DNA of 60,298 nucleotides from positions 1-60,298 of the IMG/VR virus record IMGVR_UViG_3300030397_000466; one strand, 5' to 3'. The DNA is from a virus. Taxonomy: Duplodnaviria; Caudoviricetes. How positions within the stretch are numbered: position 1 is the first letter of the stretch; each line of letters starts with the position of its first letter. The notes beneath the pieces were generated by a model. That model searched no databases. It was not told the DNA's origin and worked only from the letters and a program-made list of their open reading frames with translations. Positions 21,509-58,389 of the stretch are shown piece by piece. A program made the position numbers and the translations under genes.

Positions 21509-21745
21509 ATGAGTATATTTGTTGACGATACAGCTAGAAGCACACCCAGAATGGTTGAGTTTGGCAAATTAAATAAAGGAGATGTATTCATAATCGACCT
21601 ATCCTTGTTTGTCAAGACAAGTAGTGACTCAGCTATTTCGATTATGAATAAAAATAATCTTGAAGCAAAATTAGAAAAATTTGATGAGAACACAAAAGTT
21701 CTAACTCAACCAAACTTGAGTGTGCAAGTTGTTATATTCGATTAA
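21509..21745 (+). CDS. Hypothetical protein (frame open to about 21431)
   Basis: FGKLNKGDVF; last plus-arm gene. Confidence 0.55.
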   Translation: MSIFVDDTARSTPRMVEFGKLNKGDVFIIDLSLFVKTSSDSAISIMNKNNLEAKLEKFDENTKVLTQPNLSVQVVIFD

Positions 21746-24700
21746 TCATTTACCCAATTGAAGACTACGTTGACTGGGAGTGTTAGAAATACGGGCAACA
21801 TAAGACGGGCTACGTCCCACCCGAGATCACCCCAGTTTTCGTTATCTTCTTCATCTATCATGGATATCAGGGCTAAATTAAACATAAGTCTACCAGCTAT
21901 AGATAGTGCAGGATTCTCGCCACCCCTAATCATAGAACCCATCTGTCGATGGAATGGTGATCTAAGAAATCCACTTAAAAATGGTATAGCCTGTAAACCA
22001 ATAGAGAAGAATGTCATAGCGAATCTGGTGGATATAAGTCTAAGCATGGCCACCGCTTCGTGATCGACATTCGAATCAGAGGGATTGTATACTGGCTTAT
22101 TATGAACAATTCTAAATCCGTAGGGACCTTCCCTCTTAATGCGAACATTGGTTAAATGATCAATAGCACCAAAGATGCGTTTGAATACGTCCTCTTTGCT
22201 GACATTCGAATCTAAATACGATTTAAGTATACGCCAGTCATGCAGCATCTGCTGAACAGGATATGCCTTATATAGGCCTATTTGCTGTCCAAGACCTAAA
22301 AATCCATCACCTAGGTATATCTGAGACATACCAAACATAGTATTATTAACTGCATTGCGTGCAATAGTAATAGCTTGGTTGGACATGAAAGCACTTGGTA
22401 TACTAATACTTCTTTCTACACCATCTTCATCTACATAAGTATGAGATGTAGTAGCAGACAAATCTCCCAATGCACCAGACTCAGCAGCGGATAGTAGTGC
22501 CATAACAGCAGTCTGCTTACGCATATATCTTTCACCCTCAGTGAAGGTAAATAGCTCAGGAGCAAACCCCTCCCACCAAAACGAGAGCTTCCAGCCAATC
22601 ATACGCTTCATACGAGTATCAGATACATCACCAAGCAATGCTCTAAATTTAGCTTCTAACTGCTTACTATTTTGCTCAGTCTTAGGAGTCATGAGTATAT
22701 CTAAAAACAATTCACGAGTTCTACGAACAGTGGCTCTTTCACGAGAATCTTGTAAGCGTTGTTCTTCACGCTCTAAGGCCTCAAGCTGTTTAAGAAATAC
22801 TCTCTTTTTTCTACTATCTTGTAAGCGTTCCAGGACATACCGGCGTTTAACATCTATTCTTTTCTGTGCATCTTCAATTTTGTTCAACTCCACCAACTTG
22901 GCTATTGCATTGAATCTGGGTAAACCATCTTCTACAAATTTCTGACGATTATTCCTGATCAGTCTTGTAAAATCTCTAAAAGACTTAGTAGGATACTGAA
23001 CACCGGTTAATGGTATATCCACCAATCCGGCATCCATCTCTGTTAGCTTACCACCATGAGCCATTAAATCCATAAACATATTTGTTACTTCATCAATACC
23101 AGTTGCCTCTATAATAGCATCAATTTTAGCCTTGGGCCACTGCGGGTCTTTGCCATCCAGTATATGCATAGAACGCTTAAAAGCTTTCCAACCATATCTA
23201 ATCAATGGATTAAGTATCTGAGTTCTATTGGTTAGTGCGCCACTACTGCCCAACAATGCAGAAGCAAACATACCCTTGGTAGTATTAACAAACTTCTGGA
23301 TACTCTCAGGAGTGTGCTTATTGTCACCTTCTTCACCAAAACTATTTAACCAGTCAGCCATATCCTTGAATGAATATCTAAGCTTGCCAAAGCCAGCCTC
23401 AAGCTCAGGATCATAGAATGCAACCTTAAGCCTATTAACCATCCACTGCATAACATCAGAGTTGACAGGAACACCCATCTTCTTCAGTGCAGCAATAGTT
23501 TCAATAGACTGAATCATCAACTTATTCTTCTGAATAGAATAGAACACTTTCTGCAAATAGTCACTATGCACACCAGGGTCTTTTCTCCTGGCATGAAGAT
23601 CAGTAAAATTAGCTCTACGCTTACCAAATACATTCTGCCTTGCAAGAACAGTTCTACCACCTATGGGTGCAGTGTCACCATCTTCTAACAGCTTCTCTAT
23701 ATCATTCATCTCGTAAGAGCCAGGTGCAAGATTCTCACGCTTCTTCATGAACCTGCCCAATTGCTCTTCAAGCGTAGACGTATCCTGTCCAGGCTGAGCA
23801 GTTTCCAGTGCTTCTTCTATACCAGCTATGGTTTCATCAATCATTCTGATAACTTCAGCCTTCTCATACAGTGCAGGAGCATAGTATCTCTGCTTCTTTT
23901 CAAAACTACTGTTACCAGTATGCAATGAGCCGTGCTCATCAACATAAACCTGCTCACCAATATTAAATATTCTTAAGAAAGTGTCAAGATAGTCAGTCCC
24001 ATAGCGATCTTTACCAGTAACTCCATCACCTAATAGTCTTCGTAATTCATGTGCATCATTCTCCAACCAGAAAGTAAGCTTCTTCTCTTCAGCTCTTGAC
24101 TGATCAACAAGCACATCGCCAACCTCGTCATAGATAGCCCTAAGTTCAATAATAACATCTATTAAGCTCTTGCTACCAGAGACCTCTGTTCTGTCAGAAC
24201 GACCAGTAACCAGCTCAGTGCTAGGCTGATTTTCTATATAAAGATTTTCAATTCCGTCAAAAGACCAGTCTTTTACACGACGATTGTCTTCATCATAATC
24301 TTCGTAAGCTCTATGCTCTTCAGACTTGAAAAAACCATCTCTTGCCCAGCTAACATCTACGACAGAGGGAACTTGGTTTTTTTCTGAGTCATAGTAATAT
24401 TCATTGCCATTTGAATCTCTCTTCCATACTATATACCCTCTTGTGGTCTCAAGACCAAAATTCTTATCAGGGTCTAACAGGACATACCGGTAAGCTTCAT
24501 CACCAATCTCGGTATAGTGAATACCAGAAATTCCCTTAACCATGTCAACTTCTGCACGATTGGCATCCTGCAATCTCTGGATAAGGAGATCAATTACTTC
24601 TTTATCTCTCCCTTCGGGAGAATCTTTCCATTCAACATACCTTGTCTGGCCGTGTAAAAGATCATTAACAAACTCGTATGCCAACTTCTCAATAACTTTT

Positions 24701-25509
24701 TCCTTTAAGAAGTCTTTAGCAAGCGCTTTTTCAGGTAAAAATTGAATTTCTCCAGAAGCCATTCTAACGCGATGAACTATGCTACCCATATCATCTGTTG
24801 TCGAACCTAAGAACGTCGATTCTGAGCCATCCTCAAGCGTTATACGCACACCATCAAGGGTATATTCGGCTGGGATATACTGAACTTTGTCAATAATGTT
24901 GGAAACTGACTCAATATAGCCTGACATTGCCTGACTATATTTTTCATTATATCTTCTTGCGGCATTACGAGAACCCTCTACAAGTGTAGTAGCATTGCTT
25001 ATAAAACTAGACAGCTTGCCAGTGGGGTCTATTCTTGATACGAATATGTTGACTGGAAGCAGTGCACGCTCAAGCCAGGGCAATTTCTTGCCCCAGCGAG
25101 TGCGTTGCAGATGCACAATCTTATTAATGTGTTTAGATATAGCCAACATCCTTCTGGCATTAGAGTCCACAAACAAGCTCTTGGGATCAGCAGGTATACC
25201 AACCTGTCGCTGGACAACCTCAACTAGTGCCTCAAGATATGTATTAGGATCATAGTTGTCGTAACCCCAGGCATTGGCAGTTTGTGCCATAGTTTGGATA
25301 AGATTATTACGCATCTTCTCCCACTCGGCAATAGCTACCTGACCAATCTTCTGATCGGCTACACCTTGAGCTGCAAGTTTAGACTCAACTTCACCCTTAG
25401 TTCCTATCCACCCAGACACTGAGCTGATAATGTTACCAAGAACTGCATCATTATACTCATTTGCTTGCGAATCATTGTAAACAGTTTTAAATTCACAGAA
25501 ACTAGCCAC
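21742..25509 (-). CDS. Large internal virion/ejection protein
   Basis: 1255 aa helical protein, last in podovirus-type late operon. Confidence 0.65.
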   Translation of the reverse strand: MASFCEFKTVYNDSQANEYNDAVLGNIISSVSGWIGTKGEVESKLAAQGVADQKIGQVAIAEWEKMRNNLIQTMAQTANAWGYDNYDPNTYLEALVEVVQRQVGIPADPKSLFVDSNARRMLAISKHINKIVHLQRTRWGKKLPWLERALLPVNIFVSRIDPTGKLSSFISNATTLVEGSRNAARRYNEKYSQAMSGYIESVSNIIDKVQYIPAEYTLDGVRITLEDGSESTFLGSTTDDMGSIVHRVRMASGEIQFLPEKALAKDFLKEKVIEKLAYEFVNDLLHGQTRYVEWKDSPEGRDKEVIDLLIQRLQDANRAEVDMVKGISGIHYTEIGDEAYRYVLLDPDKNFGLETTRGYIVWKRDSNGNEYYYDSEKNQVPSVVDVSWARDGFFKSEEHRAYEDYDEDNRRVKDWSFDGIENLYIENQPSTELVTGRSDRTEVSGSKSLIDVIIELRAIYDEVGDVLVDQSRAEEKKLTFWLENDAHELRRLLGDGVTGKDRYGTDYLDTFLRIFNIGEQVYVDEHGSLHTGNSSFEKKQRYYAPALYEKAEVIRMIDETIAGIEEALETAQPGQDTSTLEEQLGRFMKKRENLAPGSYEMNDIEKLLEDGDTAPIGGRTVLARQNVFGKRRANFTDLHARRKDPGVHSDYLQKVFYSIQKNKLMIQSIETIAALKKMGVPVNSDVMQWMVNRLKVAFYDPELEAGFGKLRYSFKDMADWLNSFGEEGDNKHTPESIQKFVNTTKGMFASALLGSSGALTNRTQILNPLIRYGWKAFKRSMHILDGKDPQWPKAKIDAIIEATGIDEVTNMFMDLMAHGGKLTEMDAGLVDIPLTGVQYPTKSFRDFTRLIRNNRQKFVEDGLPRFNAIAKLVELNKIEDAQKRIDVKRRYVLERLQDSRKKRVFLKQLEALEREEQRLQDSRERATVRRTRELFLDILMTPKTEQNSKQLEAKFRALLGDVSDTRMKRMIGWKLSFWWEGFAPELFTFTEGERYMRKQTAVMALLSAAESGALGDLSATTSHTYVDEDGVERSISIPSAFMSNQAITIARNAVNNTMFGMSQIYLGDGFLGLGQQIGLYKAYPVQQMLHDWRILKSYLDSNVSKEDVFKRIFGAIDHLTNVRIKREGPYGFRIVHNKPVYNPSDSNVDHEAVAMLRLISTRFAMTFFSIGLQAIPFLSGFLRSPFHRQMGSMIRGGENPALSIAGRLMFNLALISMIDEEDNENWGDLGWDVARLMLPVFLTLPVNVVFNWVND

Positions 25510-28500
25510 AGTAAGCTCTTCCTTCTATTCTGTTAAGTATTTTACCAAATGTTGCCAATCTAACATCATCTTTGCCAATACTGGTTTCTCTTCTAGCCTT
25601 ATACAGGTTGTCATAGTAACCATTAGCATACTCAGCCAACACCTCAGGATGCATCATCCATGCAGGAGGTATTGTTTTAAGTTTTGCTACCTTGCTACGC
25701 TTGCCATCACCACGAGAGAATGTGGGACCAGTAAGTATTCTAATGGTGGCCCATCGTTGTTCCATATCAGATAAGGCCTCCCATTTTGGGAACCATACTT
25801 CAAGGAACTCTTTACGCATAATCTCATTGTAGTCCAGCTTAAAACCAAGCTCTCTTAGCTCTTGCTTGGTAAGATTTTTACTTTCAAGGTCTTTCATCAT
25901 TTTAGCAAAAACACCATTAAAAGCGCCATACATTTCGTCGCCAAACTTAAGACCGGATACAGACTCTTTAGTCTCGGCCCCAGGCTGCTCAATCAGGAAT
26001 GGCTCCATAGCCTGAACCGCGTCAGCGTGTGCTGCCCAATAGGAGAAGTCTTTGTCCATAATGATAGGATTATCTGTTAGCGATATACCATTTTCCATAT
26101 TGTTTAGATTCTGGCGCTTGGCAGACAATCCAAGATTGGACATTAGATACTCTATAGGTGTAACCTTATTGTTGGCATTCAAGCTTTTAAGCACGGCACG
26201 ATTAGAGTTTAATCTATTGTTGATTCCATCACGCAAATTACTTGCCACTTCCTTGACAGGCTTAAGAGATATAACACCATCTTTATTGGGTAGTGTAAAA
26301 TACCTGGAGCCTATTTCGTAGCTTCGCTTTATAATGTTGTCAATAGATACATTCTTTCCATTGATCATACCTTTTCTGTCGGCAGAATATTTAAACTCTT
26401 CATAGACTTTCTTAACAGCCTGTAACTCTGTAGAGGTCCACGCACCAGGAACAGGATTCTTACCAAGGTCGGGCCTCTTAAACATTCTAGTCATTACAAA
26501 ATCAGTGAACGACATAGCCCTACCATCTCTGGTTGCAAAATCCAGGCTACCAATCAACCCAAACTTCTCATTATCCACAGCGGCCTGTAGCATGATAGAG
26601 AATTCGTGCTCCTTGGTGGTCTTCAGGTATGCTTTACTACCAACAGTCTCTATAGAGTCACCTTCTTGTAGTAGTTGTTTAAGAAACTTCTTGCCATCTT
26701 CAGTGTCAAGATACTTTGTATCTATGGACCAGTAGTCCATAATAGTAGGCTCTTCAGGCTGATACACTTCAAACTTGATATCTCTGGAAACCTTTTTATT
26801 CTTCGGACCTTCCTTGATTTCTATCACGCCTGAAATGTCCTTGTATGCCATAGTTGCAAGTGCGGTCTTCGCATTTACAATAACACCCTGACTATTCAGG
26901 GACTTGGTATTGTTAGCCAGCCTTGCTAGTCTTTCACTTGCAGAGTGTATACGATTACCAAGAACACCCTTGAGGAACAGAGACAGGTTAACTGTTTTGT
27001 CCTTCTTTGCAAACTCAGGGTCTTGTATCATATTATTCATGGCATCAAGAACAGGGGCATCTTCCTTGTTGAAATATTCTATATGAACAGAATCACCATC
27101 ATGATCTGCTTCATGCAACTGGAAAACATCTTCTTTGGTCATAAACACAACTTGACCATGCTCACCAGGATTGGTGAAGTATTGAATCTTTCTGGGTTGA
27201 ACCTTTGCAAATGACTGGATAGGCTGTCTGTGTATCAATACCCATACATCATTCTCTGCAAGATATTTGTTATACGTAGCTATTTTTGTAGGAACATCCA
27301 TAGACTCCAACACCTCAGGATCAATGGCGCCATTCTCAACCATGTGAGTGCTAACCATGTTCATTGCAGTTGCATTGTCACCAGATATAACGACACTCTT
27401 GTTGTCTTTAAACTGAATAGGTCCAGCAGGTTTCAGATACAGTTTAGTTCCGAGTCCATCATTGTAGCGACGCATTTTAAACATCTTGTCAATAATAACA
27501 GAACGTTGCAATGTATTCAGCATCTGTGTAGCATACTGATATAAGTAAGCAGCCTTAGGCGAAGCCTTGAATGCGGCTTGCAAATCAGTGGGAACCTCAT
27601 CGGGATTTGAGTGCTTTTTGATTAGCTTCTCAACATCTTGAGGCCTATTCTTTAAGCCGAATACGAAGTCACTATACTTCCTCGCAGTCCGGTTGATGTA
27701 GGAAGTAAGCGTCTTCAAGTATTCTCTAGCAGCTTCACTGTTTTCCATAAAGCCCTTGGATAGTGTTAATTCATATCCAGCTACAGGATTGGCAGCACGC
27801 TTAGACGACTTCTCTCCTACAAATAATACACGTGTAGAGCTTTCAGGTAGCTCAGGCAGTATCTCATATTTGGCAGATAGTGCACCAAAACTATCCTTAA
27901 CCTCATCGTTGGTAGCCAGCCTATCAAACTCTTTTCCATTGGCGTCACGCCATGTGCCATTTTTGTATATAGCTATTCGTTTCCCATCTTTTCTTACTTC
28001 AGTATTTTTAAAGGGAACCATTTCAAGCATCTTGGCTGCAATATAATCAGTTCTGTTGTCAGGATCAAGGTGTCTAATCACAGTCTTCCACACTCTGGGA
28101 TTGCCCCTAACACCAGACACTTTAGCCCATCTATCCATCAGCTTAGCACTAGTCATCATCCAGCCATCATGTGCAGAATCCTCTGCATTTCTCATGTGCT
28201 CAAACTTGGTGCCATTATGGAAGAACTCTACTTCATTGGCATTAACAACCATCATCTTGGTGGGTCCAGAGCCTACAGGCACCCAGCCCTTACCAAGGTC
28301 TAGCTTCAATCTCTTGAAGAAATCAGATACAGACTTATATCTTTTAGGTGCAAGATACCCATTGCCCTTAATGGACTTCATCTTGGCATGCCAGCCAATG
28401 GCCTGCGCCCAAGCATAGGGATTACTTCTGGCTAGAGGTCTAATATCGTTAGCCATCTCCTTTAGAACCTTAACACTGGGAATGGTTCCAGCAGCTACTT

Positions 28501-31500
28501 CTTTTGCCATATATTCGAGAAACGCTTGCTCGGTGGTTATGGTGGCAAGCTTTCCGGTAATGGCAGAAAATAGCGCCTGACTGTTGTCACCAGCAACTTC
28601 ACCCAAGAAAAACTTGAGGTGTGGAACACCCTTCTCTCCCTTGGTTTTATTGTATGTATGCCATTCCTTGGCAAACAGCTTGTTGAGATTTTGAACAGAC
28701 TCGGGAGACAGATTGAAGTCACCAATCCCACCAGGGGTAACATACTTCTTGCCCTTGTATTCCTTGTTGATATACACATCTCTCTTAAGAGACAAGTAGA
28801 ACAGTCTGTTGGCTATGCCATTATTAATCTGATCATATTCGATAAAGTTCTGAGGTTCCATGTCGGGGTTCTTTTTAGTTCCCTGCAACTGAGTCTCTTC
28901 TAGCTCTTCAATGCGATTGACAGTAGTAGTTCCAGTTTGCCAGTCCTCGTCAAGAACTAATTGCAATCTAAATCTGTGATCAGGATGTCTTTTACCGCTT
29001 CCTTTAAAATACACTCTTACCTTTGATAAACCTTTCTGATAGAAGTCTTTCAATTTTTTAAGCACCCTCTGGTCTGATAGGTTAATATCCTTGCCTGCTT
29101 CTTTTTTAATTATAGTAGCAACAAGTCCAGAGAATGTAGCAATGTCATCAACATTGCCAAGATTGAGACTGGGATTGGCTTTTGCAACTTCATACATTTG
29201 ACGAAGAGCATCTTTACTCAGGTATACACCATATTCAGCAAAGAACGATTTCTCAAAAGAGGAAATTACATTCTCAACTTCCATGCTGCCATCACGATCG
29301 TCTGTCTCGGGTTCTTTGGACTCCTGTTCCATATAATACGTTGTAGCAGCAACATTCGTTCCAGAGTCTTTGCCTCTTACTCCACCAGTATCAACAACCA
29401 TGAAACCAGCATTCTCGTCCTCAGTAAAATTGGACGTAGACTCGGGCACATCATCAGTGGTGGCATCTTCAAAGCCTTGAATATCTATGTCTGGTGCAGG
29501 CTCAACAGTTTTGGACTCACTAAAGATTTCATTAATAACTTCAGACAAGACATTGTCATCGCTCTTTATACCAAGAACATCTTTGATAATGTCTAACAGT
29601 TCTTGCCAAACAGATTTGCCTGCCCTATACTCTACACCAGATAGCAGTTCTTGAAATGATGGACTACTTAAGGCGCCAGCTAAAAACTCTTCGGGGTTAC
29701 TCATCAAGTAGTGCGCCCTTGCACCAAGAACTTCTCCGGTGTCAAATCTACCATTGAACTCTTCAATCCAGCCAGGGCGGTTCTCGGCAAGCCAGTCACG
29801 TGTATGCTTGTGCAATGCCTTGATCTTTTTCTGAAACTTTTTGTCAGAGAAAAATCTATCATGGGTGATTAAGTGTGTAAGCTCATGCAAAACTACTTCA
29901 ACATCAAGGCCCTTGGGGCTTGGCATTTCAAATACATTCTGATTGAATGCCAGAATTTTGTGAATGCTATTATAGAATCCGGGAATTTCTTTTCCGTTAG
30001 GGCCAATCTTCCCATTATAATACAGAACACCATTGATCTTATTTTCAAGCTTCATGTCAAGAAACTTTTTGACTAGCAATCCAGCAGGGCCATCCTTGTC
30101 TAGCATTTCAAGAAGTATATCTTCACGAAGAGACTCAGGCTCAACCAGCTGAAAGTCTTCAGCATGATCTCTGAAGCCGGGCATGCTGTCAACTATCTCA
30201 TCAATCAGTATTTCATTTTTAATGCTTTCTTTTATACCATGAGCAGTTAACCTGCCATTTGCATCAAAGTCATAAGCATTGCCTGTAGCATATTCCACAA
30301 CTTCAACAAAATAATGAGCTAAGTCTGCATTGTGTTTTTTGTTGCCCTGATTTAAAAATTTATCCCACTCAGATTCAGCACGAGATTTTACATCCTCTAT
30401 GGTCTTAAGTTTTTCATCTTTAGGCAGGGCCCTAATCCTGGCACCCTCTTTTTTGGCTGCCTCAGTTTTTAGCCCTACTTCTTGAACGACGCTATCAGCG
30501 CCAGAATCTGCAACACTACTTCCTTCAGCTGCTTGAATATTTGCGGGAGCGTCTGGAAGATCGTCATCATCTTCGAGTAAAGCTGCTTGAGCCTGCTCGG
30601 CAGTGAGCTGTTTTCCCTTAACAGGCTTAGCACCTGTCTTAGAATCACCAGTATCCCCGACAGGGGCACTTTTCTTATTACTTCTAGTATCAGCCTTATA
30701 ATATTCATCTAGGTTCTCCACCCCTGTTAGGGCTCCAATTAATCTCAGATACCTGTCAGGGTTTTTATTTTTCTTAAAATCTTTTTTAGCTTCCTCAACA
30801 CTGGCCATATAATTACGAATCTCGGGAGATTGATAGCCATACTTCTCCCCCACAACTGCCAAGTGATCTTCAGCCAGCTGGCTTACCTTGTCAAGATCAA
30901 CAAACTTTCCAGTTCTCTTATTGCTAACCTTGGGAAGACTTGCTTTAGCTTTCGGGCTTTCAGGTAAATCAGTAGTAGCAGCAAGCTCTTTAGCCCCGAA
31001 TGCATCTTCTGCATCGAGTTGATATTCTGCCTGTGCCGGGCCAAAGCCCTCTACAAATCTAATCTTTCCACCAGTAGAGCCAAGGTTTTTGTCAAAGAAT
31101 ACAGTAGGCCTAGACTTGTTCCTTCTGGACCACTTCAACACATTAAAGATTAACTCTTCGTTCCATTCACCATTTTTCTTTAGCAAGTCTTCAGGTATAT
31201 TGGCTTCCTGGTATACAGAGCCCAATGCTGCAAGCACTTGCTTCTTTTCGTGACCAGGCAGTGCATTGTATTCTTTGTCGGCAGCGGTTGTTGCAGAGAA
31301 ATAATAGGCCAGCTTTTCTCTATTGCTTTTGCCAGGTATTCCACCAACAGCTTTTTCTTCAGGGTCGGCCATACGAGACACCGGACTACGCTCTTCTTTT
31401 TTAGGAGGCTCAGCAATGGCTTCTTCCAGTGTAGGCTTTTCAGGCTCTTTGGTGGGAGCTTTTTCTACTTTTGGTTTTTCCTTTGTAACAGGCTCAACAG

Positions 31501-32863: not shown

Positions 32864-32865
32864 GA

Positions 32866-45784: not shown

Positions 45785-45840
45785 TGTAAATCCTTTCTAG
45801 GTGGGTTCTTAACCTTTTGTTCACCTAATGTTAGTTATTA

Positions 45841-47322: not shown

Positions 47323-47336
47323 TAGTTAACCTCTAA

Positions 47337-48227
47337 TTAATTACCAAAGATATTTCCACTCTTGTCAGAAGCAAGGATAGCAGCAAACACTTGTTGCTCT
47401 GGTGTTGGGGTGTCTTTGCCCGTAGGCGCTGATACTCCAGCCAGGCTTCCATTGTGCTGTCTCATCTTACGACGATGTGCATTCTCTTCCTCAATTAGCT
47501 GTTGGCGACTAGCGTCACCGGCGTTTTCTCTCTGGCGTAGATATAATACATCTTCCAGTTCGAGTGTCTTGTTTCTGGCATAATTAAGTAGATCATTTAC
47601 TTGTTCGTCATTGAGACCGTGCTTAGCCTTGACGGCATTAATCATATTCTGTTCACGCATTGTAGCTTCCTGGCGAGTTTGTAGTTCATTAACTCTTGCA
47701 GAAGCCACCCGATCAACGGCTTGGTTAAAATATTTAGCGGAATCAGAGTTTGGATTGCCGAGAGCATCTTCGAAATCGAAAACGAAATCTTCCGGTAGCT
47801 CCAACTGCCCTGATGGATTCATCTCTGTATTGTCACCGTTGAGGTAGTTATAGACCATTTTGGCCAGGTTCGGGTCTTTGCGAATAACGTTGATTACAGG
47901 TTCATACTCTTTAAGTTCGCTGAGTTCCTTATACAACCTCTTAGCTTCCGTGCTGGAGGCATCATATCGCTGCTGTAGGGCTTCTAAGTCCTTTACCTCA
48001 CCATTAGTAGACTTATCGCCTTCAGTGCTTACTTGACCTTCCTGAGTCGTGTTATTGACTGTCGGAGGTGTATCGTAAGCATACCCATTTACTTGTGCTT
48101 CAAGTGCTGTGAAAAATGCTTCTGAATCAAAGTCCGGTTGGCTCTGCTTGTTATCGCCACCTTCGGCTGCTTTTTCTCCAGTTTGAATGTTGTTAAAGTC
48201 AACAGTCGTTGCCTTGTTATCGGCCAT
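47337..48227 (-). CDS. Capsid scaffolding protein
   Basis: Acidic/coiled, RYDASSTEA, position. Confidence 0.7.
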   Translation of the reverse strand: MADNKATTVDFNNIQTGEKAAEGGDNKQSQPDFDSEAFFTALEAQVNGYAYDTPPTVNNTTQEGQVSTEGDKSTNGEVKDLEALQQRYDASSTEAKRLYKELSELKEYEPVINVIRKDPNLAKMVYNYLNGDNTEMNPSGQLELPEDFVFDFEDALGNPNSDSAKYFNQAVDRVASARVNELQTRQEATMREQNMINAVKAKHGLNDEQVNDLLNYARNKTLELEDVLYLRQRENAGDASRQQLIEEENAHRRKMRQHNGSLAGVSAPTGKDTPTPEQQVFAAILASDKSGNIFGN

Positions 48228-48229
48228 GA

Positions 48230-48673
48230 CTAGTTCCTTTCTTCTAAATCAAAAAATTTGGCATGTAGACAACTGATACCGTGTTTACGATACATATCAA
48301 CTACAGACGGTTTATCATCAACTGCTAGGGCTATATTTTTAATTCCCAATTGCTTGATAATAGATTCTTTAAACTTGTCGTCAGGTTTCCCTACCCATTC
48401 ATCTGGCCTGTAGAGAATACCATCGAAGCTTTTGTATAGTTGCCACTCTTCCAGCCATTGTCTTGTTATCGACTCACGGCTTTGATGCCTTCCAGTTAAT
48501 CCTAATATGCTGTGCTCTGACCATGCTGTGGCCAGGCCATCCAGGAGCCATGCTCCTTCGTCGAACAGTGGGTCAACCTCCATAAGTTTGTTATACTTTT
48601 TAGAGTCTGGGTCCACACCAATTCTATGCCGATAGTCGGCTAATACACCATCAATATCAAATAAGATAATCAT
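48230..48673 (-). CDS. HAD phosphatase (PNKP-like)
   Basis: DIDGV, TGR, K, VDD motifs. Confidence 0.85.
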   Translation of the reverse strand: MIILFDIDGVLADYRHRIGVDPDSKKYNKLMEVDPLFDEGAWLLDGLATAWSEHSILGLTGRHQSRESITRQWLEEWQLYKSFDGILYRPDEWVGKPDDKFKESIIKQLGIKNIALAVDDKPSVVDMYRKHGISCLHAKFFDLEERN

Positions 48674-50973: not shown

Positions 50974-51980
50974 TATTTCTCTAGGAGTTGGTTTTTCTTA
51001 ATATCCTTCTTCAATGGCTTGCCTATAAAATCGTCTTTTTTGCTCCAGGGGTATCCAGTGCCAGGACTAACCATTATAAGGTCAGACTCTTTAAGCACAT
51101 GCCCTTTAGGTAAATCTTTTTTAACTGCTAAAGACCGGCCAATCCTCATTGCCTTTTCAGCAATAGAAGGTGTCAATTTGAATTCACCATTGCCTAGCAT
51201 CTTGACTGTCGCCTTAACATCTCTTGCGTATTTGAACATACCCTCAGGTCCAAGTGCTCCTAAGTGGTCTGATCCTTTCTGCATCCTGTCAAGTGTAACA
51301 TGGCGCTCGACAACGGTCGCACCGAGAGCTACAGCAAGAGGACCACCTTTAATGCCTACAGTGTGATCGCTATATCCAATCACATGGCCAGGGAAATAGT
51401 CCTTCAGTGTTTTAACCCTCATTATGTCAGCTTCTGCGTCCGGCGTAGGATAGCTGGACACGCAAGCCATAATATAAATCTTGGCAGGCTCTATGAATCC
51501 CATAAGGAATTTGACAGCTTTGTAGATGTCTCTAAGAGATGCCGCCATACCAGTAGATATCATGATAGGTTTATCTCTTTCACAGGCCCGCTTTGCCATC
51601 GCTTCTAGCAATGGATAATTCTGCATATCTCGTGATGCTACTTTGTAGATATCCGGGTTTACCCATTCTAGCACCCCGGGATTGGTAAATGAAGCTACAA
51701 ACTTCAATCCAATACTACGGGTGTAGTTTTCAAGTAAACCGTATTCGTCACGTGTAAGTTCCAACTTTGCCCTATGACCCCCATACGTCACATCAAAAGC
51801 ATTAACAGAATCATACTCTGACATAGCTAATTCGGGTGATAGTTCATGTTTCAAGTCTCGAATACATACCTTGACAGCATCTGCTTGTGTATCACTAATT
51901 TTGTCCACTAAGGCAACCGCGTCTCCAAGCTGCCCATTGTGGTTTTGTCCAATTTCGTATATTAACAACGGACTGCCCAT
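50973..51980 (-). CDS. neuB: N-acetylneuraminate/KDN(-9-P) synthase with SAF domain
   Basis: EIGQNHNG, KVAS, ISTG, SSYP, GYSDH, ERHVTLD..GSDH, SPGTG. Confidence 0.92.
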   Translation of the reverse strand: MGSPLLIYEIGQNHNGQLGDAVALVDKISDTQADAVKVCIRDLKHELSPELAMSEYDSVNAFDVTYGGHRAKLELTRDEYGLLENYTRSIGLKFVASFTNPGVLEWVNPDIYKVASRDMQNYPLLEAMAKRACERDKPIMISTGMAASLRDIYKAVKFLMGFIEPAKIYIMACVSSYPTPDAEADIMRVKTLKDYFPGHVIGYSDHTVGIKGGPLAVALGATVVERHVTLDRMQKGSDHLGALGPEGMFKYARDVKATVKMLGNGEFKLTPSIAEKAMRIGRSLAVKKDLPKGHVLKESDLIMVSPGTGYPWSKKDDFIGKPLKKDIKKNQLLEK

Positions 51981-52495
51981 AATTCTAGTGCATCCTCATA
52001 GTCTTCTTCTGTGTGAATTTCATGACCAGGGTTGAACAAGGATGTAGTATATACATCATATGCAAATGCATTGTTCTTCCAATAGTCTCTATTAATAACA
52101 TAAAGCCCGTTCTCATTGCCATCTATGTCGTATGTTCGACACACACAGCTGCCCTCCTTAACCTTTTCAACTGCCAACTTAATATTCTCTTCCAGTATAA
52201 ATGGATTTGTTGGCATTAGCACTACCACTATATCAGCCTTAATCTTGTGGTGTTTAAGGAACCAGTCTACGGTATCTTGTAATGGCATATCGCCAGCTTC
52301 GTGCTCTGCTGGGCGTTCATATGTTTTAACACCATCAATCTTATAGTCTGTTACTACATAAGTTTCAATGTTGCAATTTCTAAGCTTGTTATAAGCAATC
52401 TGGATAAGATTGCCGTCATCATTCATTTCTAGTATATTTTTATTTGGCAGTCTTTCGCTGCCCACTCTTGCACATATAATTCCAACTACGTTCAT
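51962..52495 (-). CDS. neuA: CMP-nonulosonate synthetase (cytidylyltransferase)
   Basis: ICARVGSERLPNKN, PTNPF, ENGLY, EIHTEED; likely start MNVVG. Confidence 0.85.
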   Translation of the reverse strand: MNVVGIICARVGSERLPNKNILEMNDDGNLIQIAYNKLRNCNIETYVVTDYKIDGVKTYERPAEHEAGDMPLQDTVDWFLKHHKIKADIVVVLMPTNPFILEENIKLAVEKVKEGSCVCRTYDIDGNENGLYVINRDYWKNNAFAYDVYTTSLFNPGHEIHTEEDYEDALELWAVRC

Positions 52496-52584
52496 TGTTT
52501 TTTCCTGCTCTTCCATTTGTCAATTAGCCCACCAATTACAAAGGCTAATGCTATTACCAATATAGGAAACCAAATTAAGTCCAT
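52492..52584 (-). CDS. 30 aa membrane peptide
   Basis: MDLIWFPILVIALAFVIGGL...; ends TGA with TAG two codons later. Confidence 0.5.
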   Translation of the reverse strand: MDLIWFPILVIALAFVIGGLIDKWKSRKKQ

Positions 52585-55235
52585 TACATCCACCACGGTC
52601 TTGGTTTGCGTTTCTTTTTAATTATTCTACCAGTAGTATCCTCACGAGCCATATTCCTCGGTGGAGCTGCCAGTAGCGTTGCATAATACAGTGACTCTAT
52701 TGTGTCATCGTGAGCCATCTTGGGTCCAAACTTAACAATCTCGTCTATTAGTTCGTAGTGGTCTTTCTTGACCCATATTAGTCCATTGCTGAACTTGGAG
52801 TTTAGTCCACTATAGATTCTGTTGAGTTTCTCACGACCACCAGGCTTCATGGGAGATATTGCTACGTCCCACATCTGCCCCTTAGCCCTCAGGTCATTGA
52901 AGGCTTGAAAGATTGACCTATTCATTGCTACATCTTCAACCACTGCGATCGAACAGTGATACTTCTTATACAGCTCCAACAAGTAATCTACGACACCCTT
53001 ACGACCAACATATTCTCCATTGGCATCCTGTATTCCAGAGGTGGGTATGTTCCTGTGTCGCTCATAATCCAGGACATATATATTCTCCCTCTCATCTACA
53101 GCTATAACCATTATCACGGAGAAGTCTGCATACTTTGTCTCAATATCCGTTGCAGGATCACACCCTATATAGGTCTTGACAGGAACCATCTCATTGTTAA
53201 TTACCAGATAGTTCTGGCCATCATGATATTTGTAATAGCCCTCATGGTATTTGATATGGCTTCTGGTCCACATAGCAGTTTCCTGATTTTGAACCTCAAG
53301 CTCATACTCTTGATAGTATCCACCAACACCCCTCGGTGAGCCTCTGTATACCTCCTTAATCTCATCAAGAACCTTACGAGGCATATGGCTATGCCACAAT
53401 ACTCCGCCTTCCATATCAGGCTGTGTGGCCTTATAGGAGATCACTCTCCAGGGAAACTTCTCTATAGCCTCATCACCCTTCTTCTTTGCAATAGCATAGT
53501 CATCCAATATGTTCTGTGCAAATGCATCAAAATGGACTGGTGTCTCGATGAGGAACATTCTACAGCCAGGTATTCTCTTTTCGATAGCAGGATATATACC
53601 ATTCATGATATTATCCTTGATCTTGTCTCTGGCCATCTGAGTTCTGGTATTGTCCTCATTCTCAGCATCATCAATAAATACGCCAGAGTATCTCAGTGCA
53701 CCCTGGTCTACTGTGGCAAGTGTATCACCACGCATTGAGCTAAGGTTTGAAGATGACAAGAGTCTGTCACCATAGCCTGTAATAATGTTCTCTTCATTGT
53801 CCTTCAGGAACTTAGCAATCTGCTTACCGAAGTAATAATGTATACGTTCGTTGGTCTGAAGGTGCAATCTAATATAGTGAACATTCTGGATAGATTTCTT
53901 CTGATTAGAAGATACCCATCCGTAGAACAGTTTGTGGTGATGCTCAGACAATCCCCAGTCTTTGGCAAAATTACTGAAACAAAAGTCTCTAATAATCTTG
54001 GCCTTGGTCAGAGTGGTATTGTGTGTCAACATAAAATCACCTGCCACAAATAACTCATCCTCCGAATCTACCTTCAAGCATCTACAAAAGGCTCCAGGTA
54101 GTTGCTCTATGCTGACTATCGCATTAAACAGCTTGTCATGTGGAACAAACCTTTTGGCTTTTCTTTTTAGTCTAAAAGGATTATACTTAATAGATATCGC
54201 CAATCTATAATATCCACCATAACCGTTTTTGGTATGTTTCTTAATGGCGGTTCCGCCAAGACTTCTAACCAAATACATAACATCTTTAGCTAGTTTTTCG
54301 CTAACAGTGCAAAAATAGACTTTTTTCCCACCACTGCTTTTTGTTGAAAGCGTTCCATCTGTATCCATAAGACCGCGAAGCAATTCTAGCCTCTGATCTA
54401 CAGACGAGTTGAGGTATTCTTTTGGTATAAACTTATAATGAGAATTTACGTCAAGCCCCAGCTCACGAATCTTTGAAACAGTATTAAGTATAGAAAAATA
54501 TGGACAGCGCCCTTTAGGGTATTTTTTTCTAGTCTCGTATGGTATGTATGATGTAAGCTCTTCTATATCATCCTTGGATGAGGTAATCCTGGGGGTTGAT
54601 TTTAATGACCCATCACCTATCATTACTCCCAGTGTATAAGGATCAATGGGCAGAACAGACTCGCTAAACTCAATCGCCTCTGCATTGTCTATTGCATAGG
54701 TATAATCAACCCTCTTCGAGTTATACCTGGAGTCTGTTCTGTTTTTTTTATAGTTCAACAAAAGTTCTTCGGTCGTTTTTGTCTGATATTTGTAAGGATT
54801 TTTTGCTCCATTTAAAACCCTGACAGTCCACAAATGGTCATCAGATACGATTAAAGTTTTTCCATCCCTGAGGACAACTTTATATATCTTGTCTTTATAC
54901 ATCACATCAGACAATCCACTAATTTCTTTTAGCTTTCCGTTAGAGCCATAAATTTTATTACCAGGCATTACATCTGCAATTTTTTTCCAACCATTATCAG
55001 TAAGAACTGGCTGATCCAACCTCAGAAACTTTGCATGGCCTCTAGGTATGACAATCGCACAGGGCTTATTTGATGGTGCTATAAGCTCCCGTGCAATCTC
55101 ATAGTGAAACTGTGGAGTGGCTGACTTACGAAAGTCACCTGGTATAAATAGTTTTCCAAATGTGATCAGGTCTTCGTATGCAGCCACTATAAGTTCGTCT
55201 GCCTTATTTGGTAGCATCTTTATTATGTTAGCCAT
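52584..55235 (-). CDS. terL: Terminase large subunit (intein-containing)
   Basis: Spliced Walker A PRGHAK|TT, FIDD, GCDPA, HDD. Confidence 0.92.
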   Translation of the reverse strand: MANIIKMLPNKADELIVAAYEDLITFGKLFIPGDFRKSATPQFHYEIARELIAPSNKPCAIVIPRGHAKFLRLDQPVLTDNGWKKIADVMPGNKIYGSNGKLKEISGLSDVMYKDKIYKVVLRDGKTLIVSDDHLWTVRVLNGAKNPYKYQTKTTEELLLNYKKNRTDSRYNSKRVDYTYAIDNAEAIEFSESVLPIDPYTLGVMIGDGSLKSTPRITSSKDDIEELTSYIPYETRKKYPKGRCPYFSILNTVSKIRELGLDVNSHYKFIPKEYLNSSVDQRLELLRGLMDTDGTLSTKSSGGKKVYFCTVSEKLAKDVMYLVRSLGGTAIKKHTKNGYGGYYRLAISIKYNPFRLKRKAKRFVPHDKLFNAIVSIEQLPGAFCRCLKVDSEDELFVAGDFMLTHNTTLTKAKIIRDFCFSNFAKDWGLSEHHHKLFYGWVSSNQKKSIQNVHYIRLHLQTNERIHYYFGKQIAKFLKDNEENIITGYGDRLLSSSNLSSMRGDTLATVDQGALRYSGVFIDDAENEDNTRTQMARDKIKDNIMNGIYPAIEKRIPGCRMFLIETPVHFDAFAQNILDDYAIAKKKGDEAIEKFPWRVISYKATQPDMEGGVLWHSHMPRKVLDEIKEVYRGSPRGVGGYYQEYELEVQNQETAMWTRSHIKYHEGYYKYHDGQNYLVINNEMVPVKTYIGCDPATDIETKYADFSVIMVIAVDERENIYVLDYERHRNIPTSGIQDANGEYVGRKGVVDYLLELYKKYHCSIAVVEDVAMNRSIFQAFNDLRAKGQMWDVAISPMKPGGREKLNRIYSGLNSKFSNGLIWVKKDHYELIDEIVKFGPKMAHDDTIESLYYATLLAAPPRNMAREDTTGRIIKKKRKPRPWWM
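54018..55028 (-). mobile_element. Class 3 intein with LAGLIDADG homing endonuclease (337 aa)
   Basis: Starts FLRLDQPV; HLW, RCLKV, THN|T; LGVMIGDG and LRGLMDTDG. Confidence 0.9.
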
Positions 55236-55342
55236 TCTATCCCTAAATATGTATCAAATTGAACCCAGGCCGCCAAGCGTCCATCAATCCATTCAGTATA
55301 AGCAATGGGATACTCTTTTCCATTAACTATTATTGTATTCAT
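55223..55342 (-). CDS. 39 aa hypothetical protein
   Basis: MNTIIVNGKEYP...; fills gap. Confidence 0.45.
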   Translation of the reverse strand: MNTIIVNGKEYPIAYTEWIDGRLAAWVQFDTYLGIEWLT

Positions 55343-55584
55343 TATAGAGACTGTAGTTTTGCAAAATCTTGAAGTTTTTCAATTAACACTTCTCTTATTT
55401 CAGCTGCCGTATTGGCGCTGTCCTTGAGCGCAATTCTCACATCAAAATTTTCATCTCTGTAGTCAAAAAAGTTTTCAAGAATCCACTGTTCAACTTGTTG
55501 TCTAGTCATAGCAGTTTTTATCCTTCCACGCTTCACATTCAAGAAGAATCTTTGTATCGAAAGATATAAACCCCCTACTGTCAT
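55342..55584 (-). CDS. Hypothetical protein (start uncertain)
   Basis: Tiled. Confidence 0.45.
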   Translation of the reverse strand: MTVGGLYLSIQRFFLNVKRGRIKTAMTRQQVEQWILENFFDYRDENFDVRIALKDSANTAAEIREVLIEKLQDFAKLQSL

Positions 55585-55723
55585 ATGAAGCTTTAGTGTA
55601 ATTACTTCTAAACAAATCTAATCCATTTAACCTGTCTTCAACAATCGCCAAAACCATTTCAGGACGATCAAGGTAAATAACAACTCTTGTATCTTTTAAG
55701 TTGACCGGTTTTGTATTGGCCAT
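55502..55723 (-). CDS. Hypothetical protein
   Basis: Tiled. Confidence 0.5.
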   Translation of the reverse strand: MANTKPVNLKDTRVVIYLDRPEMVLAIVEDRLNGLDLFRSNYTKASYDSRGFISFDTKILLECEAWKDKNCYD

Positions 55724-55953
55724 TTGCTTCCAACCTCTCTTTTGGATATTCCCATTTCAGTTCTAATACTTTTAATGTTTTTGGCTAAGTAGTAGCCTAC
55801 GGTATACCAACTAAGTAAAGCTGGCATTCTGTCCTCGTCTTCACCTGCACACATTCCTAGTGCTGCAAAATAACCAGGAGCCCAAACTCCCCAGGTTATA
55901 AAGAATAGTGTCAGTGCAGGATATAAAAAGTTGTCTGCTATAAAACCCAACAT
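55696..55953 (-). CDS. Membrane protein
   Basis: MLGFIADNFLYPALTLFF...; TAATG coupled. Confidence 0.5.
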   Translation of the reverse strand: MLGFIADNFLYPALTLFFITWGVWAPGYFAALGMCAGEDEDRMPALLSWYTVGYYLAKNIKSIRTEMGISKREVGSKWPIQNRST

Positions 55954-56144
55954 TAGAACAATCCATCCGTTTCTATATCGTGCTTCTCGAAGAAGTTGTT
56001 TGGGTATACTACAATATAATCTTCTCCATTGTAGGAGTATCGGCAATTGCCCATCTTCTCGTCAATCTTAATCCACTCAGGAAGCTCGTCTCTTTGATAG
56101 TCAAATACCGTTTCTCCGTTCACATATTTAACAATTACAGCCAT
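55953..56144 (-). CDS. Hypothetical protein
   Basis: Coupled both ends. Confidence 0.55.
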   Translation of the reverse strand: MAVIVKYVNGETVFDYQRDELPEWIKIDEKMGNCRYSYNGEDYIVVYPNNFFEKHDIETDGLF

Positions 56145-56902
56145 TATTCCTCCAGTGCTAACTTTTCAGATTGGATAGCTTTAAGCTCATCAGCCCCGAA
56201 TGGTGAGTGCAGATGCAGATGTCTTTCATTTGTCTGATGGTGAATTTCTGACTCATCTTTCAATAACTTGACAAGCATCTCAAGGGCTCTTAATCTAATT
56301 GAGTCACTGTTAGACTCTTCTGCAATAGCCTTAATATTAATAAGGATGAGTTTAAAGTCTATGCCAAGTTCTTTTGCTGCATCTTTAGCGTTTTGACTCA
56401 TTAGTTTAACAATCCTTTTTTGTTTAATTATTTCACAGAAATGCTTCTTCCAGTTAGTCTTAGGTGTATATGCTGCCTCATATGCATTCTGTGGTGTGTG
56501 CCCAGAGATTAGTGCTGCTACCATTATTCTCTCATTTTTGGTGGGCTTGGTCCTTGTAAATACACGGTGCCGCTTACCTCCAAATGAATACCTCGTCTCA
56601 CGCTTGCTGAAATCGGTATCCATTTTGATTTGCGGCTCCATGATGAAAGCACCAACAACTGTTCTGCAATACTTTCTATCTTTATTTCGCTTCTTTGCAA
56701 GTGCAGGACTCTTGAGAGGTAGAACCCTCAGTAGCTGGACTATAGCGCCATCATCTGATACAACCCAGTCACCTTCTTCCCCCTGTCGCCAGTCTTCAAT
56801 GAGCGAGGGCACCTCCTGACCTAAAGCCAGGAAGTGCGTCTCAAACTCATCCTTGTCGGAGAATACGAAATGTTTAATACCTTTAATCTTCTGATACTTC
56901 AC
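56144..56902 (-). CDS. Terminase small subunit-like protein
   Basis: HTH-like AYEAAY and IRLRALEML; upstream of terL. Confidence 0.55.
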   Translation of the reverse strand: MKYQKIKGIKHFVFSDKDEFETHFLALGQEVPSLIEDWRQGEEGDWVVSDDGAIVQLLRVLPLKSPALAKKRNKDRKYCRTVVGAFIMEPQIKMDTDFSKRETRYSFGGKRHRVFTRTKPTKNERIMVAALISGHTPQNAYEAAYTPKTNWKKHFCEIIKQKRIVKLMSQNAKDAAKELGIDFKLILINIKAIAEESNSDSIRLRALEMLVKLLKDESEIHHQTNERHLHLHSPFGADELKAIQSEKLALEE

Positions 56903-57188
56903 TTAAATCACCTTCCGACGTAATCAGCATTTGATGAAGAGATGAAGATAGTAAATCAACAAATTGCTCATCTCTTGCTAGTTCTTTGTAGTATATTTTG
57001 TCCAGTATCAAATGTATAACTTCATGTAGAAATACCTGATACTCTCCACCTGGAATGTCATCATACAAGCTTATCTCTTTTTTGATGAAGTTGGCAAGTC
57101 CGTATGCATTGCTTTCGTGGAGCAAGGTGTTGTCATACTTTACAGATATCTCTTCATCTATCAAATTAAATTTTTTCGGTATCTTCAT
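56883..57188 (-). CDS. HEXXH metallopeptidase-like protein
   Basis: FLHEVIH...DEQFV. Confidence 0.65.
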   Translation of the reverse strand: MKIPKKFNLIDEEISVKYDNTLLHESNAYGLANFIKKEISLYDDIPGGEYQVFLHEVIHLILDKIYYKELARDEQFVDLLSSSLHQMLITSEGDLSEVSED

Positions 57189-57543
57189 CTTCAATATACC
57201 ACATAAAAGTTTTAGCATCCAGCTTAATAGGGACCTCTGACTCTATAAACATCCTCATTTGGTTCATCTGCCCCTTTATAAGCTTCAAATTCTTTATTAC
57301 ATCCCTATTAACGTCTTTCTTCGTAGAATGCTTTTCATTGAATACATTGTCAGCACTTCTGGCTAATTGGTCAACAAGTCTAAAGCAGTTATAAAAACCA
57401 TTGAAATATGCCAACTGATCCTTAGTTATATTAATTTTTGCTTGAGATAATTGTTTTTCCTGACTCTGGTCCGCCTTGGATGACTTGGTTGGTTGCTTCT
57501 TCTGCCTTGTATTGCTCATAATCCCATACTCTCCTGTGAACAC
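57166..57543 (-). CDS. Hypothetical protein (start uncertain)
   Basis: Tiled. Confidence 0.5.
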   Translation of the reverse strand: MFTGEYGIMSNTRQKKQPTKSSKADQSQEKQLSQAKINITKDQLAYFNGFYNCFRLVDQLARSADNVFNEKHSTKKDVNRDVIKNLKLIKGQMNQMRMFIESEVPIKLDAKTFMWYIEDEDTEKI

Positions 57544-57688
57544 CAGTTAAAGTTCCAATAGTATCTGCTAAATCTTTTAAACCTTGTGCACGGTTAAGGA
57601 TGTCTGCCGACTCCATACCGTTAGTAGCTTCTGCCAATGCTGCAATAAGTTTTTCAATACTTGCGTAACATGCTTCAGATGATTTCAT
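57431..57688 (-). CDS. Hypothetical protein
   Basis: GAGGA RBS. Confidence 0.5.
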   Translation of the reverse strand: MKSSEACYASIEKLIAALAEATNGMESADILNRAQGLKDLADTIGTLTGVHRRVWDYEQYKAEEATNQVIQGGPESGKTIISSKN

Positions 57689-57689
57689 C

Positions 57690-58043
57690 TTATTCCTCGC
57701 TAGTTCTTTGTGTTGTTAGCTTAAGTAATTCTGATAGTTCTAATACTGCGTAAGCCTTAGAAAAGTTCCGTTTGAAGATTAATAAGGGAATACGACCTTC
57801 TCCAGTATTTTCTTCTGCTTGTTTGATAGAGTCCCATAAGTTAAGTCTTTCTACGTTTTTACATTCTATATCGAATGGTATTTCACTCTCCGCCATAGGT
57901 GATAGGAATATATCCCTACCAGTTTCTCCCATAACAGCTGTCTTAACATCATTGTCTTGTAACAATGGCCAATACTTGTGCAACTGCTCTTTCACCCATT
58001 TCTGGAATCTGGCACCTTTATTCTTCGCTGATCTAGCTTTCAT
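57690..58043 (-). CDS. Holliday junction resolvase (Hjc-like PD-(D/E)XK)
   Basis: KNKGARFQ, GRDI, IECKN, QA. Confidence 0.8.
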   Translation of the reverse strand: MKARSAKNKGARFQKWVKEQLHKYWPLLQDNDVKTAVMGETGRDIFLSPMAESEIPFDIECKNVERLNLWDSIKQAEENTGEGRIPLLIFKRNFSKAYAVLELSELLKLTTQRTSEE

Positions 58044-58300
58044 TATATAATGCCTACTGGCTCGTAATACGGCGTCCACTCCTGGTGAGGTTCATCGCCT
58101 TCGTTAATCTTATTACCCAGTGGACAAATCTTCCTCACTGGTTTCCAGTTATATAAGTTCTCTAGTGGTTGCCCTACAAACTTCTTTAATATGGGTGCTG
58201 TCTTAATAATAGTCTTGCTGTCATCTGTATGCACCCCACAACAGAAGCTGTGTGATACCACCCAATACCAGTTTTTCATATTACTCCTTATCGTCTTCAT
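58043..58300 (-). CDS. Hypothetical protein
   Basis: Coupled to resolvase. Confidence 0.55.
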   Translation of the reverse strand: MKTIRSNMKNWYWVVSHSFCCGVHTDDSKTIIKTAPILKKFVGQPLENLYNWKPVRKICPLGNKINEGDEPHQEWTPYYEPVGII

Positions 58301-58389
58301 AAATATTATCTATCCATGTCATTCCAAACCATAAAAAGAAAAATAAACAATATAAGAAAAAACACTACTGATATTTCCATACTTCCTCC

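Follow-up and report, generated by a model that had tools for sequence, protein, structure and literature searches.

Avoidance of TGA stops in the late arm of a podophage genome with predicted TGA-to-tryptophan decoding in its replication genes

What does it mean that a phage genome ends none of its long late genes in TGA and carries in-frame TGA codons in its replication genes? This question is raised by the virus record IMGVR_UViG_3300030397_000466 (Duplodnaviria; Caudoviricetes). The window, that is, the whole stretch of 60,298 bases analysed here, is the complete virus record and corresponds to a whole podophage genome with two converging arms. The arm labels "early/middle" and "late" are taken from gene content only, and the gene calls are mechanical open reading frames (ORFs). 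An earlier note on this DNA had proposed that the late arm avoids TGA as termination by release factor 1 (RF1) alone, later in infection, would predict, and that this gives independent support to a model based on release factor 2 (RF2). The explanation that we tentatively favour is that UGA is not a dependable stop in the infected cells of a standard-code host, RF2 termination being weak or weakened. The best reading of the genome as a whole is a variant of the stop-codon-recoded phages, with minimal recoding in the replication genes, a prfB-type frameshift and a code-neutral late arm.

Stop codons of the two arms and of related phages

Within positions 21742-58380, 50 minus-strand ORFs of at least 60 aa were found, of which 13 were dropped because a longer minus-strand ORF in a different frame covers most of their length (these end in TAA, TAG and TGA in 5, 3 and 5 cases, respectively). 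Among the stops of the 37 retained ORFs there are 24 TAA, 13 TAG and no TGA, exactly the numbers given in the earlier note. At the 36 junctions of neighbouring late ORFs there are 13 gaps and 23 overlaps. The description of these overlaps as mostly TAATG holds for the ten one-base overlaps (eight TAATG, two TAGTG, no ATGA) but not for all 23, of which 13 are longer (8 to 113 nt) and probably reflect longest-ORF start calls. The only TGA stop of the late arm belongs to a 30-aa micro-ORF that lies, as a link of a TAATG...ATGA chain, between the genes for the terminase and the cytidylyltransferase; in its TGA-ACG-TAG ending the TGA is part of an ATGA overlap and the TAG stands two codons later. 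In-frame Trp codons of the late arm are 169 TGG and 0 TGA (34 late ORFs, 12,000 codons). The TGA trinucleotide itself is not depleted in these genes, since it occurs off frame 828 times, against 474 for TAG.

On the plus arm, TGA stops were borne out at 2994, 3332, 9588 and 11578, and 4 of the 81 accepted ORFs of at least 60 aa genome-wide end in this codon. Their next in-frame TAA or TAG is 6 to 53 codons away, without a nearby backup stop. The product of the gene ending at 3332 reaches position 112 of 116 of the phrog_26268 profile at its residue 111 of 113, so this TGA is the normal end of the family. Plus-arm genes past 11578 avoid TGA, as the note had said (0/19). TGA stops thus number 4/22 up to 11578 versus 0/56 beyond (p = 0.005). 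Within the plus arm alone the difference is not significant (4/22 versus 0/19, p = 0.11), and plus-arm position was dropped as evidence of timing.

For comparison, capsid and portal searches gave 13 related loci, and removal of four near-duplicates (at least 94% nucleotide identity) left nine (G1, G2, L006, L007, L008, L009, L130, L131 and L132). No match to the capsid-to-portal region was found by blastn in a set of 50,697 phage records. The 133 late-strand ORFs of the nine relatives end in TAA (97), TAG (21) or TGA (15), eight of the 15 TGA stops coming from L006; without this outlier the count is 7/114. In the three relatives with both arms (G1, G2 and L131), TGA stops make up 12/45 in the early arms versus 5/82 in the late arms (p = 0.002), and no mid-gene in-frame TGA was found in G1 or G2. 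The unrelated yardstick consisted of 20 phage loci of similar GC, some of which are one contig fetched from two collections; 21% of their stops are TGA and none of the 20 is TGA-free. At that rate the probability of 0/37 is 1.6e-4, at the relatives' late rate of 15/133 it is 0.012, and at 7/114 (about 6%, L006 left out) it is 0.096. Direct comparison of the window with the relatives' late arms by Fisher's test gave p = 0.043, or 0.19 without L006.

A TGA-poor late arm is therefore a family trait of standard-code phages. Relatives without in-frame TGA show largely the same avoidance when stop usage is compared by module, and the early-rich, late-poor gradient of these standard-code phages means that the late-arm count is not the independent support for the RF2 model that it had been taken for. 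By itself it is a modest compositional clue.

These numbers also carry the alternative that survives best, an ordinary preference for TAA, then TAG, in the highly expressed late genes of an AT-rich phage family, the zero being the family baseline plus chance, with no link to the TGA-containing genes. Highly expressed genes prefer TAA and avoid leaky TGA, and for the late-arm count taken alone this account is viable, given the relatives' late rates and a probability of 0.096 at the 6% baseline. As an account of the whole genome we find it rather doubtful. TAG accounts for every one of the 13 non-TAA late stops (p = 0.0009 to 0.009 versus the relatives; p = 2e-6 versus off-frame composition), and the TAG share of late stops is 13/37 (35%) versus 21/133 (p = 0.018). 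The later plus arm has no TGA in 19 stops, versus 27% (12/45) in the relatives' early arms (p = 0.003). The sole late TGA stop is backed by a TAG two codons later, and the same genome places TGA at conserved Trp positions. Bacterial TAG use is described as roughly constant as GC varies (PMC8789281), so the extra non-TAA stops of the late arm, with its higher GC (42%), would be expected as TGA, which argues against an ordinary preference.

The relatives' late TGA stops also differ in what follows them. A TAA or TAG lies within two codons in 6/15 cases, versus 14/117 for TAA and TAG stops (p = 0.012), in a post hoc test on the late strands of G1, G2, L006, L008, L130 and L131. Frames after ATGA and TAATG overlaps differ in composition, a caveat on this test, and over all relatives regardless of arm the effect is marginal. 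With these caveats, UGA may be leaky across the whole family.

In-frame TGA codons and a frameshift cassette in the replication genes

All five in-frame TGA codons lie in three adjacent replication/recombination genes at 14.9 to 16.7 kb, hereafter the island. Three are at conserved Trp or aromatic columns, and two are in unalignable or variable columns. The codons at 15059 and 15119, in the gene starting at 14887, fall in near-invariant Trp columns, with W in most of 17 homologues. The codon at 16563, in the DnaB-type helicase gene, aligns with W in the four closest homologues (P0003, P0004, P0005 and P0160); the other homologues have F or Y at this column. The second TGA of the helicase gene (16713) sits in a variable column, and for that of the small gene between them (16331) no informative homologue was found. 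Phrog_19 matches residues 18-393 of the DnaB read-through translation; under table 11 the gene is open solely from 16761, as a GTG-started C-terminal segment of 294 aa (16761-17645). This segment is the C-terminal (RecA-like) domain without the N-terminal domain, and the public gene call P0001 is the same truncated form.

No TAA or TAG interrupts the roughly 650 codons of the island. Its Trp codons are 5 TGA and 3 TGG, versus 0 and 265 elsewhere (p = 5e-9; 5/273 TGA in the genome), yet 75% of the Lys, Glu and Gln codons of the plus arm end in A. This bias, together with the 0/19 of the later plus arm and the uniform TAG among non-TAA late stops, forms a stronger signal than the late-arm count. 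Taken together, the alignments indicate that these three neighbouring replication genes use TGA as a Trp codon. Decoding as Gly (code 25) or as selenocysteine was ruled out, as the three informative codons stand at conserved Trp or aromatic columns.

The closest relatives of the island lie on contigs of 19,426 and 8,004 nt, and the nature of their ORF breaks is inferred from protein fragments. The DnaB ORF fragment P0302 of one relative stops exactly before a W of the full-length P0160, which would point to TGA as a Trp codon there too. In P0301, known as protein only from the 19,426-nt contig, the DnaB ORF leaves its frame after ...NLLII and continues shifted, and the 91-aa ORF P0159, from a contig of equal length, takes up the correct DnaB frame again; a frameshift, a further site of recoding or decay may account for this change. 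Searches with DnaB and with P0164 (see below) among viral contigs gave no relative, and P0160 found only relatives at no more than 35% identity among metagenome and viral contigs.

The first gene of the island also contains a frameshift site. It begins with a good Shine-Dalgarno (SD) sequence and an ATG, runs for 18 codons and then meets a TGA (14941) in GGAGG-TGT-CTT-TGA-T, where an SD-like element stands three bases upstream of CTTT and the TGA is in frame. The protein continues in the +1 frame, where no start codon occurs ahead of 15020. The window contains a single exact copy of the cassette (0.08 expected by chance). The 18-aa leader aligns with the N-terminus of P0164, an unbroken relative, and the +1 frame with its remainder (53% identity), so the two frames make one protein; homology thus confirms the predicted +1 shift at this prfB-type cassette. 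A structure model of P0164 (predicted local distance difference test score 90), which is that of the 53% identical relative and not of the window's own product, matches RAD52, Mgm101 and a phage Sak protein, and on this basis the gene would encode a Rad52-type single-strand annealing protein. RF2 sensing in prfB is the one known use of such a cassette (PMC12421855).

The window sequence is present in aquatic-metagenome runs, all from one study, and no RNA run is among the sequencing runs listed as carrying it. Contigs from three runs of that study, which may include the source sample, are identical over 13900-17700 at depths of 142 to 316x, including the extra T and the TGA codons, so an assembly error is unlikely.

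Features of both arms are listed in Table 1. The plus arm further encodes a PD-(D/E)XK nuclease and an RNase H-fold exonuclease. Directly 5' of the first in-frame TGA there is a block of peptide-modification type (7931-14877, plus strand), with a GGACT (gamma-glutamyl-cyclotransferase), a phiEco32-like COOH-NH2 ligase, the RimK-like ATP-grasp protein, an amidoligase-like protein and a class-II glutamine amidotransferase; a second, weak GGACT match is at 3981-4559 (plus strand). On the minus arm are genes for the large terminase, a P22-type portal, an SU10-type capsid protein and adaptor, NeuB and a cytidylyltransferase. The large terminase (52584-55235, minus strand; 883 aa) carries a LAGLIDADG_3 domain at residues 280-348, between its two terminase halves, which suggests an intein or homing-endonuclease insert. 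The NeuB-family nonulosonic acid synthase and cytidylyltransferase genes, with one for an HAD/PNKP-type phosphatase, lie among the portal and terminase genes (48230-52516, minus strand). Two giant neighbouring ORFs of 2453 and 1255 aa (21742-32863, minus strand) gave no Pfam or PHROG match; their counterparts in relatives have about 3000 and 1000 aa (G1, 17483-29391; G2, 531-12610).

Table 1. Coordinates of the arms, genes and signals discussed in the text
Feature	Position	Strand	Remarks
Plus arm	124 to ~21.4 kb	+	GC ~0.35; small genes without known function, one tRNA-Arg(TCT)
Early gene, TGA-ended	2281..2994	+	ATGA overlap with next gene; next in-frame TAA/TAG 22 codons on
Early gene, TGA-ended	2991..3332	+	ATGA overlap with next gene; phrog_26268 match
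tRNA-Arg(TCT)	5158..5232	+	Only canonical tRNA gene; not a suppressor
Early gene, TGA-ended	8962..9588	+	Next in-frame TAA/TAG 53 codons on
RimK-like ATP-grasp gene	10700..11578	+	Ends in TGA; last TGA stop of plus arm
Rad52-type single-strand annealing protein gene (predicted)	14887..15454	+	18-codon frame-0 leader, +1 shift, in-frame TGAs 15059 and 15119
prfB-like shift cassette	14930..14943	+	GGAGG-TGT-CTT-TGA, then T
Small gene, 82 aa	16214..16462	+	One in-frame TGA at 16331; TAA overlaps DnaB start
DnaB-type helicase gene	16455..17645	+	In-frame TGAs 16563 and 16713
Late (structural/packaging) arm	21742..58300	-	GC ~0.42; 37 non-nested ORFs of at least 60 aa
30-aa hydrophobic micro-ORF	52596..52492	-	Sole TGA-ended ORF chained into late arm

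Explanations for the use of TGA

According to the explanation that we favour, the host would use the standard code, and its RF2-dependent termination would be weak, or become weak, in the infected cell. The host's own tRNA-Trp would then read UGA, often enough that three adjacent replication/recombination genes depend on this decoding, and the CTT-TGA cassette would shift +1 when UGA is recognised slowly. As UGA would be an unsafe stop, TAA and TAG, both readable by RF1, would be selected for, and selection would have kept or made every gene from about 11.6 kb on, including the 36-kb late arm, end in one of them. The late genes of the family being already TGA-poor, this purge would have been small, with about two stops expected to be lost. 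TGA at conserved Trp columns, a +1 shift at a prfB-type cassette, the absence of a phage suppressor tRNA, release factor or TrpRS (tryptophanyl-tRNA synthetase) from the scans, and the stop counts are what the analysis shows; host-supplied UGA decoding, a weak RF2 and any timing during infection are what we infer.

Several features favour a standard-code host. Two early TGAs are in ATGA overlaps, one coincides with the end of a PHROG profile, and the early TGA stops have no nearby backup. The absence of TGA from the 265 Trp codons outside the island, despite the preference for A-ending codons in the plus arm, points in the same direction, as do the standard code of the relatives and the cassette, which makes sense only where recognition of UGA is slow. 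As to RF1-only termination later in infection, the first part of this proposal agrees with the stops, for everything from 11.6 kb on ends in TAA or TAG. The timing is not established by them (p = 0.11 within the plus arm), since a host without RF2 or with a constitutively leaky UGA predicts the same late arm.

Other results, besides the early-to-late gradient of the relatives and the Fisher comparisons given above, weigh against this explanation. ARAGORN and Rfam searches over the window found no suppressor tRNA and solely the tRNA-Arg(TCT). Pfam searches of 74 ORFs gave no release factor or tryptophanyl-tRNA synthetase (TrpRS), nor did a rescan of 25 of them at E values up to 0.5. A factor weakening RF2 or decoding UGA was likewise not found in the tRNA scans and the Pfam-scanned ORFs. 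Two UGAs and a frameshift, with a near-cognate tRNA-Trp against an active RF2, would leave almost no product. The sense TGAs at 16331 and 16713 have no assignable residue, "stop" and "sense" TGAs share similar sequence contexts (mostly TGA-A), and the shift-site TGA is followed by T where prfB has a conserved C. Finally, no host assignment was reached by the NeuB, portal and metagenome-assembled genome (MAG) comparisons.

Lowered ARAGORN thresholds and a custom scan for a UCA anticodon arm next to a T arm gave nothing credible. All calls made at low threshold were regarded as noise; one of them, a "tRNA-SeC(tca)" at 23495-23559, lies inside the stretch covered by the 1255-aa ORF. The gap at 1.3 to 2.3 kb holds three tRNA-like elements (1293-1340, 1747-1812 and 2133-2205, plus strand), each with an acceptor-type stem and with a T arm of the GGTTCGAATCC type in the first two and CTAGG-ATCGATC-CCTAG in the third. 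They have no normal anticodon arm and, in its place, a short linker or a 3-bp hairpin. ARAGORN calls two of the three, only at an 80% threshold, and Rfam gave a weak antisense hit only. Such elements may be tRNA genes in decay or small RNAs that mimic tRNAs.

In the host comparisons, the best named matches in a NeuB protein search were mostly Bacteroidota, at about 40% identity, and NeuB had no match in the genome contigs. SD sequences precede 41 of 67 phage genes, versus a background of 9%, and strong use of SD argues against a Bacteroidota host. The portal profile found three MAG-binned contigs among the genome contigs, assigned to Roseobacter, Poseidoniales and Peribacteria, taxa that are mutually inconsistent. 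Between the window's first 20 kb and those MAGs, the only matches were at tRNA genes. The Roseobacter and Peribacteria MAGs have two PCRF-domain genes each.

A more specific form of the weak-RF2 explanation, which we regard as unlikely, is that RF2 activity serves as a clock for the phage. The first genes would be expressed in the standard code, with TGA stops allowed, and an early function, for which the amidoligase block at 7.9 to 14.9 kb is a candidate, would then disable or outrun RF2. UGA would become a slow Trp codon read by the host tRNA-Trp, which would switch on the helicase, and the annealing protein through its prfB-type frameshift and two UGA codons; the late genes, free of TGA, would be indifferent to the switch. 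If this were true, the relatives' rare late TGA stops with close backups would reflect a family-wide leakiness of UGA late in infection.

The main rival to a standard-code host, likewise unlikely in our judgement, is a native code-4 host without RF2, Mycoplasmatales-like or a code-4 member of the Patescibacteriota. The four early "TGA stops" would then be read through to the next TAA or TAG, giving extensions of 22, 24, 53 and 6 aa past 2994, 3332, 9588 and 11578, respectively, and the late arm would simply follow the host code. Stops restricted to TAA and TAG, with 35% TAG, are the pattern of an RF1-only organism, and with no suppressor tRNA, RF1 or TrpRS detected in the phage, decoding would have to come from the host. 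The 5/8 TGA among island Trp codons and the break of a relative's DnaB at a Trp suggest a long and efficient reading of UGA as Trp. One relative's contig is binned with the Peribacteria MAG, though this MAG has two PCRF-domain genes, and code 4 has recently been reported in some Patescibacteriota of aquatic type, in the class Minisyncoccia (PMC13695967). Against such a host, the lack of TGA in the 265 Trp codons beyond the island would call for both a very recent switch of host and an acquisition of the island from elsewhere; two consecutive ATGA overlaps and the PHROG profile end coincide with early TGAs, the backup stops are distant, and relatives use TGA as a stop. The cassette would be left unexplained: we know of no role for CTT-TGA with an SD where UGA is a cognate sense codon. 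A GC content of 35 to 44% and a tRNA-Arg(TCT) are unusual for phages of AT-rich code-4 hosts, a weak point in the same direction.

Least probable by far is that the TGA block is a recent, largely non-functional import from a code-4 phage, with only the table-11 helicase fragment in use and the late pattern unrelated: G001, G002 and G003 have no DnaB homologue, tblastn found no match for any of 13 early proteins in any fetched locus, and the P0301 frame change hints at decay in some lineages, but the island's interruptions are TGA only and at Trp positions wherever testable, its single frame change falls on an exact prfB-type cassette, and the phage is abundant in three runs.

Comparison with known systems

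Full-text literature searches found no phage described with such an arrangement, which resembles four known situations in part. The TGA-poor late structural genes, seen family-wide, are in line with the general preference for TAA (stop trends in PMC8789281). The window departs from this preference in having 35% TAG with zero TGA, and TGA at conserved Trp codons in the same genome.

Code 4 in bacteria without prfB is described for Mycoplasmatales, several insect endosymbionts, some Eggerthellaceae and Minisyncoccia (PMC12421855, PMC13695967, bioRxiv 10.64898/2025.12.01.691617). As in these bacteria and their phages, late stops are TAA or TAG only and TGA is predicted to be read as Trp. Unlike code-4 phages, the window has no TGA among its non-island Trp codons and four early genes that end in TGA, two of them in ATGA overlaps, and its GC and tRNA-Arg(TCT) do not suggest an AT-rich host.

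The frameshift site is similar to that of prfB (PMC12421855): an SD-like GGAGG stands three bases upstream of CTTT, the TGA is in frame, two frames encode one protein, and the site is early in the gene (codon 19 here, codon 26 in Escherichia coli). It differs in that the gene encodes a predicted Rad52-type annealing protein and not RF2, T and not C follows the TGA, the SD element is GGAGG and not AGGGGG, and two further UGAs downstream would have to be read as Trp. If the present explanation is true, prfB-type cassettes have been recruited outside prfB.

The closest parallel is found in the Jade and Agate phages of Borges et al. (bioRxiv 10.1101/2021.08.26.457843), who describe phages with TGA-to-Trp recoding whose hosts use the standard code, find suppressor tRNAs in only 35% of the TGA-recoded ones, and predict that most alternatively coded phages infect standard-code hosts. 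As in these phages, TGA stands at Trp positions and is depleted as a stop, part of the genome can still be read in the standard code, which close relatives use, and a suppressor tRNA often goes undetected. Here, unlike there, sense TGAs number only five and occur in replication/recombination genes; they are absent from the late, structural and lysis genes, opposite to what has been published. The two codes give nearly equal coding density (0.920 under code 11 versus 0.923 under code 4), no suppressor tRNA, RF1 or TrpRS was detected in the window (only a minority of known cases carry such machinery), and the source is aquatic and not gut. Current accounts see phage recoding as a means of restraining the late and lysis genes, and it is recognised by a rise in coding density; as the density hardly differs here, code-prediction screens would miss such phages. 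If our explanation holds, this genome represents a cryptic, minimal form of recoding, with five UGA-Trp codons and an RF2-type cassette without a suppressor tRNA found, and offers a tractable system for studying how UGA is decoded in phages that encode no suppressor tRNA.

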